Assembly (NCBI GenBank): GCA_030603495.1
Contig: JAUVXR010000001.1
Location: 4,993-68,992, forward strand
Reading direction: 5' to 3'
Length of the DNA stretch: 64,000 bases
DNA from: a bacterium
GTDB lineage: Bacteria; Armatimonadota; Zipacnadia; Zipacnadales; Zipacnadaceae
Shown here one piece after another: positions 8,289 through 10,415 of this stretch. Position 1 is the first letter of the stretch. The number at the start of each line of letters is the position of its first letter. The notes below the pieces were generated by a model. The model searched no databases. It had not been told where the DNA came from and saw nothing but the letters and a program-made list of their open reading frames with translations. Position numbers and translations under genes: made by a program.

Positions 8289-10415
8289 CTAAAGATCTAG
8301 CGACGGCTGACTATCGGACACTCCGGCAGCGTCGTTACTGGGATCTTCCAAGAACTCCCGCAACCGGCGCCACTCGATTCTCTGAGAGATATCCTCACCC
8401 AACTCCTGAATTACCGCCTCTTTGATCCGGTCGAGATCCTTTTGTGCGTGTGCTGCCACAATTACCTGGTCATAACCCATGCCCAGGTCGGCCTCGATAT
8501 TGGCCACCTCGAATTGGGGCTTCTCAGCCGTACCTAGTGCTATTTCCACAGCCAGCTTCTGTCCATTGGCATACACTGCAACGTCAACGGCCTTGTTGCC
8601 CAGAGTTTGGTCTTCGAGGCGAATCTCGCTGCGGGGGTAGCGGGCCCTATAGTACTGCGAAACTGCCCTCTGGAAATACCGATGGGGAAGCCCGCCTTTG
8701 CCTCGAGGGCGGTCTACCTTTACGCGCAGCACCGACGTCAAGTGTTCCCAACCTTCCGCAGTAGGCTGGTATAGAACGATTGCCCTGCCGCGGCGACCGG
8801 TATTGACCTCACAACGTTCAATAAGGCCAGCCTCTTCCAAGCGGGTGCGGATCTGGTTACCCATATAGCCGCTGTAGTCGAGGCGCTCGTCCCGCTGGGT
8901 TACCGTCTCAAATGGATGGCGGGCAATCTCTACCAGGTATTCGGTAGCACGCAACGGCAGTGCCGATTGCGTGGCCTGGTCGCCCTGCTGGGTAGCAGTC
9001 TGCTGAGCGCCGCTTTGTTCAGTGGTCTCGACGACCGGCGGGACGATTGCAGGTGGCTCACTTCGCGGCACATAATCCAGTTGCGCCAAGGACTGCTCGC
9101 GGCGCTCCGCGACCTGCTCTGGAGTTGGTTCGGGAAAATTCAGCTCAGGGAAGCGTACCAGGAAAGCACGGGGGTATGTTCCGCCCATAAACTGGATCGC
9201 GTGGCGGTCGGGAATCTCGCTCAGCCAGTCTTCCTGCTCCTGATTAAGCGAACAGCTGCGAGCGAAGATGCGCTTGGAATTGCCTTCGTCCAGGCGAAAA
9301 CAGGTCTTATAGCGAGTGTTGGCCAGAATCTGCGCCGGGGTCTCCCCCGGCACTTGGTCGGTAAATATCAGCCGGATATCACGCTTCCGCACCCGTCGCG
9401 ATGCCTGTAGCAGCCAGGGCTCGGTTATATCGCTTCTTGGGTCCCACGAAGAGTAGAGCAGATGGGCCTCATCAATGATGATGTTGAGGCGGTCGCCCGG
9501 GTGCAAAGATTTGAAAGTGATAGCTGCGGTGAGGAACGTATCGACAAAGAAAAGCAACTGTTGGTCGCTGAGGCCCCGCAGCCGCAACACCAGTGATCTG
9601 TTGGTCAGCTGTCCCAGGTCAAAGCCTCTGACGCAGTCATAGACCGGACCCATCAGTCGCTGTAGGGCAGCCAGCCGATTCAGCGCGCTCTCTCTATAAT
9701 TGTACCGCCGGCTGAACGGCTTGTAGCGAATCCGCTGTAATGCTGCCAACACATCAGTAAGGGTAGGATAGTTGAGGCTGCCGCCAAATACTCCGTGACT
9801 GTCAAACAGGTCCCAGAGCACCTCACCCAGCAGATTCTCAATGCCCTCGCGAAAGAAAAACGCCTCGCGGGTGACATTGTGAAAGCGGTAGATGGCCGAC
9901 CGCGGGTGCTCTCCCTGAACGGGGGCGAAGGGGTTCCACTTGAAGTCCTCATAATCGATTACGAGAAACTCATCCGCAGGAAACTGTAGCGCTACGTCGT
10001 CGTGCTCGTTCTCGAGGTCCAGAAAAAATACAGTCTGGCCAGCGGCGTGCAGCTGCGTAGCTAGATGCTTTATGCCATAGCTTTTCCCCACCCCTGGTGT
10101 TCCCACCACTAGAGCGTTCCAGTCTTCGTCCGGAGGCAGCGGGCAGGGAAAGCCCACCCCCGCACCGGTGGGCACCCAGGTCCAGGGCATGCCGGCAGCT
10201 GGCAGATCTTCGGGCAGCGGCTGGTCAACCATGAAGGGGTGCGGTTCGTCGACATTGAGAGCGGCTTGCACGGTCAAGGCATGAGCAAGTGAGTTGATCA
10301 TTCCTTCGTCCCCAGACAGATTTGCCGCCGCCACCGCAACTTGGGCTCCGGGATGACTGCGCAGCCCGGATAGGGCTAATAGATCGTTAAGCACAGAATC
10401 TTCGCTAAGCTCCAT
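8289..10415 (-). CDS. FtsK/HerA-superfamily P-loop ATPase (708 aa) with C-terminal winged-helix and restriction-endonuclease-like domain
   Basis: Walker A is VVGTPGVGKSY and Walker B is IIIDEAHLL. The C-terminal roughly 220 aa contain a wHTH-like segment (YLVEIARHP...IRTRLEEAGLIER) followed by a D...EIALGTAEK segment. It is paralogous over its C-terminus to the 679-aa ATPase at 26554-28593 (shared NIEADLG[MA]G[YF]D motif). Confidence 0.8.
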   Translation of the reverse strand: MELSEDSVLNDLLALSGLRSHPGAQVAVAAANLSGDEGMINSLAHALTVQAALNVDEPHPFMVDQPLPEDLPAAGMPWTWVPTGAGVGFPCPLPPDEDWNALVVGTPGVGKSYGIKHLATQLHAAGQTVFFLDLENEHDDVALQFPADEFLVIDYEDFKWNPFAPVQGEHPRSAIYRFHNVTREAFFFREGIENLLGEVLWDLFDSHGVFGGSLNYPTLTDVLAALQRIRYKPFSRRYNYRESALNRLAALQRLMGPVYDCVRGFDLGQLTNRSLVLRLRGLSDQQLLFFVDTFLTAAITFKSLHPGDRLNIIIDEAHLLYSSWDPRSDITEPWLLQASRRVRKRDIRLIFTDQVPGETPAQILANTRYKTCFRLDEGNSKRIFARSCSLNQEQEDWLSEIPDRHAIQFMGGTYPRAFLVRFPELNFPEPTPEQVAERREQSLAQLDYVPRSEPPAIVPPVVETTEQSGAQQTATQQGDQATQSALPLRATEYLVEIARHPFETVTQRDERLDYSGYMGNQIRTRLEEAGLIERCEVNTGRRGRAIVLYQPTAEGWEHLTSVLRVKVDRPRGKGGLPHRYFQRAVSQYYRARYPRSEIRLEDQTLGNKAVDVAVYANGQKLAVEIALGTAEKPQFEVANIEADLGMGYDQVIVAAHAQKDLDRIKEAVIQELGEDISQRIEWRRLREFLEDPSNDAAGVSDSQPSLDL

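Follow-up and report, generated by a model that had tools for sequence, protein, structure and literature searches.

Two ATPases and their domains

The window analysed here (64,000 nucleotides of contig JAUVXR010000001.1, from a bacterium of the phylum Armatimonadota) carries on its minus strand two related P-loop ATPases, hereafter named winA (open reading frame, ORF, 8289-10415; 708 aa) and winB (26554-28593; 679 aa). Both proteins are predicted to have the same architecture: (i) a ring-forming double-stranded DNA (dsDNA) translocase of the HerA/FtsK clade, similar to the C-terminal domain of DndH; (ii) a flexible linker; (iii) a MarR-like winged helix-turn-helix (wHTH); and (iv) a PD-(D/E)xK domain. 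They lie in separate co-directional gene strings, each closed by its own tyrosine recombinase gene (7097-8251 for winA and 20032-21327 for winB). It is argued below that winA and winB are the core DNA-handling motors of integrative, plasmid-like mobile elements, a reading to which we give slightly less than an even chance.

In winA, the Walker A (GTPGVGKS, aa 105-112) and Walker B (IIIDEAH, aa 312-318) motifs are followed by a wHTH at about aa 488-565 and a nuclease-like domain at about aa 575-665. In winB, the corresponding motifs read GRSGAGKT and IIIEEAH, and the protein further has a helical insert at aa ~178-265 and, after a disordered linker (aa 460-479), the wHTH (aa 485-556) and the nuclease domain (aa 568-671), the part that codes for its C-terminal wHTH plus PD-(D/E)xK module (the tail) being 26581-27141 of the minus strand. 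A conserved tail motif is translated as NIEADLGMGYD in winA and as NIEADLGAGFD in winB. An earlier reading of this DNA (the sequence-only reading) had described both ORFs, with these coordinates and motifs, as paralogs standing in two gene contexts, and both the gene strings and the pairwise alignment bear this out: the two proteins are 26% identical over ~600 residues (BLASTP, E 4e-43), and their last ~190 aa alone are 33% identical (E 4e-21). Since the alignment covers the full length of the proteins and the tail, the resemblance is not due to low-complexity sequence, and the similarity lies far above chance.

In an alignment of 43 family sequences that includes winA and winB, the invariant ATPase columns (winB numbering) are G111, G113 and K114 in Walker A, E325 in Walker B, the arginines R349 and R352, and the sensor glutamine Q363. 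To judge from these residues, the ATPase site (Walker A and B, arginine finger and sensor Gln) is intact in both proteins. The same alignment shows eight invariant columns in the tail: R505, G516, H570, E591, D599, E612, G616 and N623.

The full-length AlphaFold model of winB (pLDDT 85) consists, in this order, of an N-terminal three-helix bundle, a P-loop core with an insert of four to five helices (178-193, 197-214, 226-234 and 241-265), a long helix, the disordered linker and the tail. The top Foldseek match of the ATPase core was the C-terminal domain of DndH (7es4, E 4.6e-16, TM-score 0.76 over the target), together with HerA (4d2i, E 4.6e-16) and VirB4 (4ag5, E 1e-13, TM-score 0.71 over the target). 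Further matches in the PDB were mostly HerA rings, for example those belonging to the Sir2, DUF4297 and TdpAB defence complexes, and HerA 4d2i was matched by sequence search of the PDB as well. On the basis of these models, the motor belongs to the FtsK-HerA superfamily and, within it, to the HerA/DndH-like branch, with the DndH C-terminal domain, HerA and VirB4 as its closest relatives; the HerA/FtsK-type P-loop motor that had been proposed from the sequence is thus upheld by motifs and fold matches alike.

The matches to curated sequence models stay below the respective cut-offs: (i) in Pfam, DUF87 (1e-7), HerA_C, P-loop_TraG (for winB, 21 bits vs. a cut-off of 25.8) and TrwB_AAD_bind (for winA, 12.7 bits vs. 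20.5); and (ii) in NCBIfam, CedD, the best match of winB (1e-21, ATPase domain only, 77 bits vs. 600), and the HerA equivalogs (22-32 bits vs. 800-970). Many other family members show sub-threshold Pfam matches to TraG, TrwB and FtsK P-loop models (FtsK_SpoIIIE is matched in 14 of 43 members, with E up to 0.1, and in none at gathering score). Neither protein can be assigned to canonical HerA, given scores below the equivalog cut-off and the absence of a NurA-like gene from the window and from the recurring gene clusters, nor to the type IV coupling proteins, given the lack of a transmembrane anchor and the P-loop_TraG and TrwB_AAD_bind scores below gathering threshold. In PADLOC 2.0, no system-specific model was matched over its full length and the similarity is partial and confined to the P-loop (mad8 over aa 100-413 of winA, 1e-19; HerA/DndH, 1e-4 to 1e-8; DndH, 3e-5). 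CedD and mad8 were rejected as leads, since their similarity is confined to the ATPase domain.

The tail, modelled separately with AlphaFold (pLDDT 90.8), folds into a winged helix of three helices and, after it, an alpha-beta-beta-beta-alpha-beta domain, the same order of winged helix and nuclease-like domain that the sequence-only reading had put forward. In the model, the winged helix is MarR-like, with a three-helix core and a beta-hairpin wing. As for the second domain, its nuclease-like fold is taken as real and of the PD-(D/E)xK (restriction-endonuclease) type in view of the tail model, of the alignment (E 0.03) of the D..E-I-E-T-G stretch of the tail profile to a Cas4 nuclease at its catalytic D..E-I-K motif and of the weak matches of some members to Pfam Mrr_cat, MTES_1575 and CoiA_nuc. 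In winB, the candidate catalytic residues are H570, E591, D599, E612 and E614 (N623 is conserved as well). The predicted site of subfamily B, to which winB belongs, would be D599...E612-I-E614 plus E591 and H570, with a glutamate in the lysine position of D...ExK, as in BamHI. Subfamily A as a whole, including winA, has alanine in place of the third acid (Ala626 at the equivalent of winB E614), so that winA may lack nuclease activity or may rely on a different residue for it.

In an exhaustive hidden Markov model search with the tail, the best 150 of 3925 matching cluster representatives were all members of the same ATPase family or fragments of them, and among these 150 the tail was found on no other protein, which argues for a family-specific module.

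The family and its partner genes

The two ATPases are anciently diverged members of one family, in which winA represents subfamily A and winB the main subfamily B; this family is large, spans bacteria and archaea, and is not a local invention. At least 1985 relatives of winB (~665 aa, 46-60% identical) occur in the protein collection, in many phyla that include Asgard archaea (WOR-3, Hydrogenedentes, Hodarchaeota and Lokiarchaeia are named sources). Species-representative genomes from many phyla of bacteria and archaea contain the family at no fewer than 325 places, commonly with two or three copies in one genome, and a metagenome scan confirmed at least 538 relatives. As regards winA, it has three close relatives, and the next-best match is 31% identical. 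Two copies that are just 26% identical and that belong to two old subfamilies do not point to a recent local duplication, and the local diversification suggested by the sequence-only reading was accordingly abandoned. In six other loci, a second divergent ATPase paralog lies at most 10 kb away, with a Cys-rich small partner, matching that of winA, in four of the six. In collections of mobile DNA, the family is represented by no member in IMG/VR, by one weak match among 50,697 phage records, and by matches of 22-33% identity in PLSDB; as the latter are distant and cover the ATPase region only, the family is absent from the sequenced plasmids of cultured organisms.

The 94 ATPase ORFs of the fetched loci comprise 61 with wHTH and nuclease, 29 with wHTH alone (mostly from Planctomycetota) and four with neither. 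Three of these four tail-less ORFs adjoin a small ORF that matches the tail (the nuclease in two cases, the wHTH in one), that is, a split version, and a separate PD-(D/E)xK gene (cluster c17) is mostly found beside nuclease-less variants (seven of nine c17 loci). The fused tail is hence a fixed trait of the family and not a novelty of this locus. The 29 of the 94 that keep the wHTH without the nuclease suggest a constant core made up of the motor and the wHTH, which is also the situation in FtsK and TraB.

Neighbourhoods were compared by clustering all ORFs of 87 loci, with neighbour counts over 54 long genome loci and a second set of 79-80 metagenome loci. The partner of winB (28630-29208, minus strand, as are all genes of both strings given here) is a 192-aa coiled-coil protein of the DUF8104 family (PF26406) in which a CW[RK]D motif is conserved; it lacks transmembrane segments and has no match in PADLOC. 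In 75 of ~84 subfamily-B genome loci, the ATPase gene is directly preceded by a same-strand gene for a partner of ~190 aa, and the two often share 4 nt; in the independent metagenome set, a DUF8104 gene takes this position in 70 of 79 loci. The winA string has other partners: a 143-aa Cys-rich, zinc-ribbon-like protein with one C-terminal transmembrane helix (10460-10891; cluster c46), encoded upstream of every subfamily-A ATPase (in the window, L001, L002 and L003), and a 111-aa protein with two transmembrane segments (10898-11233; cluster c45), conserved in subfamily-A operons. No transmembrane segments are predicted in winA, winB or the DUF8104 partner. Since the partners of winA carry transmembrane helices, the winA type may act at the membrane through them.

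The remaining genes of both strings also recur. The XerC/D-like tyrosine recombinase gene (7097-8251; Phage_integrase 4e-43; XerC 1e-64, below cut-off) lies 38 bp downstream of winA, a position that it also holds in L001 and L003. Upstream, the winA string includes a 554-aa ThiF/E1-like protein (11508-13172; ThiF 8e-11), and a ThiF gene precedes the ATPase in L001 and L002 too; in L001 (7160-8612), a 234-aa ORF is followed by a 264-aa ThiF protein, so that the window protein may be a fusion, or the two L001 ORFs a split. The winB string, for its part, contains a MoxR-type AAA+ ATPase (23653-24996) and a DUF2201-like protein (22325-23656), together spanning 22325-24996, and this pair is found in ~10 family loci. 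Thus, the ThiF context of winA and the MoxR context of winB both belong to recurring modules of the family. A four-gene module (ThiS-like ubiquitin-like protein, or Ubl; a ~358-aa Cys-rich protein; JAB; ThiF) stands near the ATPase in 14 loci, among them L020, L021, L036, L041, L045, L047, L048, L057, L066, L068, L074, L076 and L084; it shows weak PADLOC matches to E1-E2, BilD and JAB, and its gene order resembles that of the Bil (bacterial ISG15-like) operons.

Among the long genome loci, a Xer-like tyrosine integrase is found near the family in 24 of 54. An Orc1/Cdc6-like gene is found in 24 of 54 genome and 25 of 80 metagenome loci, and Replic_Relax in 8 of 54 and 1 of 80, respectively; the two never occur together (no locus has both among the 54 genome and 80 metagenome loci). 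The Orc1/Cdc6-like protein has a median length of 356 aa (AAA+ 31-190, lid 203-258, Cdc6_C 290-342). Other recurring neighbours are an ArdC-like anti-restriction protein and a serine resolvase; HsdR and ParE/Phd are found near the family as well.

The island and other elements of the family

Comparison by blastn with two loci (L001 and L008) of a related metagenome-assembled genome (MAG), CSMAG_2722, shows the same gene order, with winB 93% and winA 58% identical, and a match that is restricted to 7100-31889 of the window; beyond both positions, the CSMAG_2722 flanks covered by these loci are unlike those of the window. Homology confined in this way between differing flanks indicates that this ~24.8-kb stretch, with both ATPase modules, is an island. 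It consists of the two gene strings in tandem, and the integrases at the string ends (the XerC/D-like one and a second tyrosine recombinase at 20032-21327) are 27% identical. On the left, the island ends at the stop codon of the recombinase gene 7097-8251, the homology stopping at 7100; just outside this end lies an 84-aa fragment of a DDE_Tnp_1_4 transposase (6649-6903, minus strand). A perfect 16-nt repeat at 4021 and 30069 was rejected as an att site, for it lies off the homology boundaries and was put down to chance (~0.1 expected). The 64-kb window contains no tRNA gene. Within the island, no ORF belongs to the Orc cluster and none of those scanned matches a Cdc6 model.

Two further cases point to elements that carry the pair of DUF8104 and ATPase genes. 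Firstly, in one MAG (CAXXSM01; loci L038, L049 and L054), an element at least 12 kb long with the DUF8104-ATPase pair, an ArdC-like gene and unknown genes is present three times; the copies are ~89% identical and share a left boundary ~250 bp upstream of the partner gene. Secondly, two Ignavibacteria MAGs contain a compact ~11-kb element (L060, ~6408-17312; L042, 1-11623) that ends at tRNA-Thr(TGT) and holds only a serine resolvase, DUF8104, the ATPase, a few small ORFs, Replic_Relax and an integrase; its left end is undefined because the L042 contig stops there.

Upstream of the winB operon, 325-440 bp from the DUF8104 gene, are seven tandem GGTG[CG][CG]AGAGGG boxes with a spacing of 17-18 bp (29532-29649, minus strand). 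The window as a whole has 11 matches to the box vs. 2.1 expected, a number reached in none of 100 shuffles, and the related MAG carries the array too (L008, 8958-9009). It is a possible binding array, i.e., a candidate iteron, origin or loading site. Iteron arrays were tried and rejected as a feature of the family: a test with TRF and k-mer multiplicity gave only a weak enrichment upstream of the partner gene (a 9-mer is seen at least three times in 12% of windows there vs. 5%). The boxes stand in a ~2.1-kb stretch without convincing ORFs (29209-31350), the gene strand of which is very rich in G (a GC skew of about -0.2 for the plus strand). Also in this stretch are a direct repeat of 40 nt without mismatches (30271-30310 and 30465-30504) and a repeat of 16 nt (30329 and 30527); Rfam had no match within the island, this stretch included.

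Outside the island, a run of large, little-annotated ORFs (33742-53190) looks like a separate conflict or defence island beside the mobile one. It encodes two phosphoribosyltransferase-domain proteins (35457-36476 and 46734-48614), an orotidine monophosphate decarboxylase-like protein (38906-39673), a 1254-aa SMC/AAA_23 ATPase (40210-43974) and a HATPase_c_3 (MORC-like) protein (51514-53190). On the other side of the island, a 972-aa protein with Ig-like, CarboxypepD_reg and SdrD_B-like repeats (251-3169, minus strand), probably located at the surface, has a LytTR response regulator (5568-6419) next to it.

Possible functions of the motor

If winA and winB are the core motors of integrative, plasmid-like elements, they would act in three steps: (i) the winged helix would load the motor at a specific site on the dsDNA of the element itself; (ii) the ATPase ring would pump or unwind this DNA; and (iii) the tethered nuclease would nick or cut it, so that the excised element would be processed for transfer, replication or segregation. 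The winB type would work with the cytosolic coiled-coil DUF8104 partner, and the winA type with the small membrane-anchored zinc-ribbon and transmembrane partners. This reading draws on the intact ATPase site and the domain architecture, on the island that a related MAG has between other flanks, on the wide and often multi-copy occurrence of the family, on the presence of the pair in compact elements, on the integrase, ArdC and resolvase neighbours, on the sub-threshold TraG, TrwB and FtsK matches of many members, on the strong conservation across domains of life and on the retention of motor plus wHTH even when the nuclease is lost. Furthermore, the mutual exclusion of Orc1/Cdc6-like and Replic_Relax genes is the pattern expected from replication-module swapping in mobile elements.

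There is also precedent. Actinomycete integrative and conjugative elements (AICEs) consist of Int, Rep and an FtsK-like Tra protein that reads clt via its wHTH (PMC3429521), and the integrated elements of archaea are rich in HerA-like arCOG00280 proteins, which occur there alongside integrases and Orc/Cdc6 (PMC4158269). With Streptomyces TraB, AICE Tra and FtsK, winA and winB share a ring translocase of the same superfamily followed by a C-terminal wHTH for site recognition; with AICE Tra, they further share the setting, i.e., integrative elements with Int and Rep (PMC3429521), an integrase and Orc or Replic_Relax being common near the family. In contrast, TraB and FtsK are membrane-anchored and nuclease-free, whereas winB lacks transmembrane segments and belongs to the HerA/DndH branch. 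As for the cis-acting site, TraB binds repeated clt, and winB has the upstream box array, which is not general in the family. The closest functional parallels would be TraB, with its FtsK-like motor and wHTH for clt, and those Rep proteins in which a nuclease and a DNA-binding part are combined with a hexameric motor.

Nevertheless, a number of observations weigh against a role as element motor. Searches for att sites revealed no direct repeats at either end of the island or beside the internal integrase, the tRNA end was not repeated in the four tRNA-bearing family loci, no circular contig (terminal overlap) was found among 113 contigs (33 from genomes and 80 from metagenomes), and the family does not generally have iteron-like arrays beside the operon. 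No T4SS (type IV secretion system), capsid or other transfer genes recur near the family, and the lack of transmembrane segments in winB and its partner speaks against a trans-membrane DNA pump for the B type. The operon lies near element ends, where small mobile elements often carry defence cargo, and the MoxR-DUF2201 and Ubl-E1-JAB neighbours are like those of conflict systems. Finally, the literature searched contains no experimental study of any family member, and the sole published reading of neighbourhoods with Orc/Cdc6, HerA/FtsK, restriction endonuclease (REase) and wHTH, as given in section 22 of PMC10853773, is that of defence.

According to this rival explanation, which we regard as a serious possibility that falls clearly short of an even chance, mobile elements would carry the proteins as a defence against invaders, of the "HerA/FtsK capture" type. 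In such a system, the wHTH (and the Orc/Cdc6-like protein, if present) would localise the complex on foreign DNA during its replication, transfer or packaging, the HerA ring would reel this DNA in, and the fused REase would degrade it, with the DUF8104 coiled coil as sensor or regulator. HerA rings with nucleases or Sir2 are established defence machines and make up the bulk of the fold matches in the PDB; the best of these is the DndH C-terminal domain, to which weak PADLOC matches (DndH, HerA and mad8) can be added. Patchy, multi-copy distribution, the HsdR, ParE/Phd, MoxR and Ubl-E1-JAB neighbours, the enrichment of the separate PD-(D/E)xK gene c17 where the nuclease is missing (short variants in seven of its nine loci) and the probable conflict island adjoining that of the window agree with it as well. 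On the other hand, no known or candidate PADLOC system was matched beyond generic P-loop similarity, one third of the family is devoid of the nuclease, and an ATPase that is 46-60% identical across domains of life is unlike typical fast-evolving effectors. Also, the swapping of Orc for Replic_Relax, never both, fits replication rather than a sensor role.

The published counterpart comes from comparative genomics only (2024): section 22 of PMC10853773, extended in PMC12839542, describes mobile neighbourhoods that couple Orc/CDC6, an REase, HerA/FtsK proteins (one with a four-helix insert) and wHTH, interpreted as countering invaders. As far as that section goes, several features coincide with the family described here: the domain set (HerA/FtsK motor, wHTH and active-looking REase), the mobile neighbourhoods, the frequent Orc/Cdc6-family gene (in the 24 of 54 and 25 of 80 loci given above), the helical insert of the HerA version and the kinship of its HerA domain with that of DndH. 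But both operons of the window lack an Orc/Cdc6 gene. Moreover, the Orc/CDC6 protein of that section "invariably" has an inactive REase between AAA+ and C-terminal wHTH, whereas the Orc1/Cdc6-like neighbour of the family is of ordinary size and, to judge by its domain limits, leaves only ~30 residues, too few for an inserted REase domain. Nor does the text of that section describe the DUF8104 partner, the exclusion between Orc and Replic_Relax or the wHTH-only variants. The effector role suggested by the sequence-only reading is kept as one of two live readings, the neighbourhoods favouring a core function in mobile elements at least as strongly.

Comparison with other HerA-clade systems confirms that the domain combination as such has precedent: covalent fusions of REase and HerA/FtsK were already known from DndH and from the mobile neighbourhoods just mentioned (PMC10853773, section 22). 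DndH (7es4, from DndFGH restriction) is the best fold match of the ATPase core and has an REase in the same polypeptide (PMC10853773). It differs in its size (~1700 aa), in the position of the REase, N-terminal to the motor, in its many further domains, in working with DndF and DndG, neither of which is present here, and in its weak sequence similarity (the PADLOC match of 3e-5). HerA-NurA, HerA-Sir2, HerA-DUF4297 and TdpAB share the HerA-clade fold and the coupling of the motor to a nuclease or effector; in these, the effector is a separate docked subunit, whereas in winA and winB it is fused via a flexible linker behind the wHTH, and no NurA, Sir2 or DUF4297 gene lies near them. Regarding CedD, CedB and VirB4, CedD is the best NCBIfam match of winB and VirB4 4ag5 a fold match (TM-score 0.71); yet the CedD score is far below its cut-off (77 vs. 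600 bits) and those proteins have no wHTH-nuclease tail. Approximately half the CedB, CedD and VirB4 proteins have transmembrane helices, and all act with membrane channel proteins (10.1101/2024.09.27.615246).

Two other explanations are improbable. FtsK reads the FtsK orienting polar sequences (KOPS) and activates XerD through its C-terminal wHTH, and the ATPases might likewise be wHTH translocases that align sites and activate an adjacent Xer-like recombinase (winA) or a resolvase to resolve or segregate element multimers. The XerC/D-like recombinase directly after winA in the window, L001 and L003, and an integrase or resolvase adjoining several B-type loci, agree with such a role; nevertheless, this adjacency is not universal in subfamily B, the nuclease domain would be left without a role, and the fold ranking places the ATPase as HerA/DndH-like and not FtsK-like, so that we give it a small chance. 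Finally, packaging ATPases of PRD1-like viruses have small membrane proteins upstream, as the winA operon does, and the combination of motor, site recognition and nuclease follows the logic of a terminase. A genome-packaging ATPase of an unrecognised virus, analogous to a terminase and like the FtsK/HerA-type ones of membrane-containing icosahedral viruses, with a wHTH that would recognise a pac site and a nuclease that would cut concatemers, is nonetheless very unlikely: to weak PHROG "terminase large subunit" matches over the P-loop and the label "possible viral DNA pumping ATPase" given to the HerA-like arCOG00280 of archaea (PMC4158269) must be opposed the lack of relatives in IMG/VR, the single weak match in the phage records, the far poorer similarity to virion packaging ATPases in BFVD (query TM-score ~0.2) than to generic HerA/VirB4-like proteins, and the absence of capsid, portal and tail families among the window genes and the recurring neighbours.

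Returning to the role as motor of mobile elements, it can be given a more specific form, which we consider doubtful. The DUF8104 protein and the HerA-wHTH-nuclease ATPase might be the hallmark transfer or processing machine of an undescribed family of integrative, plasmid-like elements across bacteria and archaea, with a backbone of tyrosine integrase, Orc1/Cdc6-like protein or Replic_Relax, and motor. Without a T4SS, they would move or replicate in many bacterial phyla that are uncultivated and in archaea, Asgard lineages included; in the window, two of these elements would stand in tandem, one with the cytosolic and the other with the membrane-tethered version. As part of this same doubtful proposal, these elements would be the non-actinomycete counterpart of TraB-driven AICEs, with a built-in nuclease.

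In any case, several features appear to be undescribed in the literature searched: the near-universal DUF8104 partner, the two subfamilies with cytosolic and membrane-tethered partners, respectively, the wHTH-only and split variants, and the element architecture. If the motor serves the element, it would mark a very widespread and unstudied class of mobile DNA, with hundreds of loci in species-representative genomes and at least 2000 protein clusters, in bacteria and archaea alike, and a mechanism of transfer or replication that would be new outside actinomycetes and would be relevant to gene exchange between the domains of life in sediments and groundwater. Should the defence explanation be true, the pair would be a compact two-gene machine that reels in and cuts DNA, with a programmable-looking DNA-binding head, and the first testable example of the "HerA/FtsK capture" idea. 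Under either reading, the pair is small and well conserved, and offers clear targets for point mutation: K114, E325, D599 and E612.

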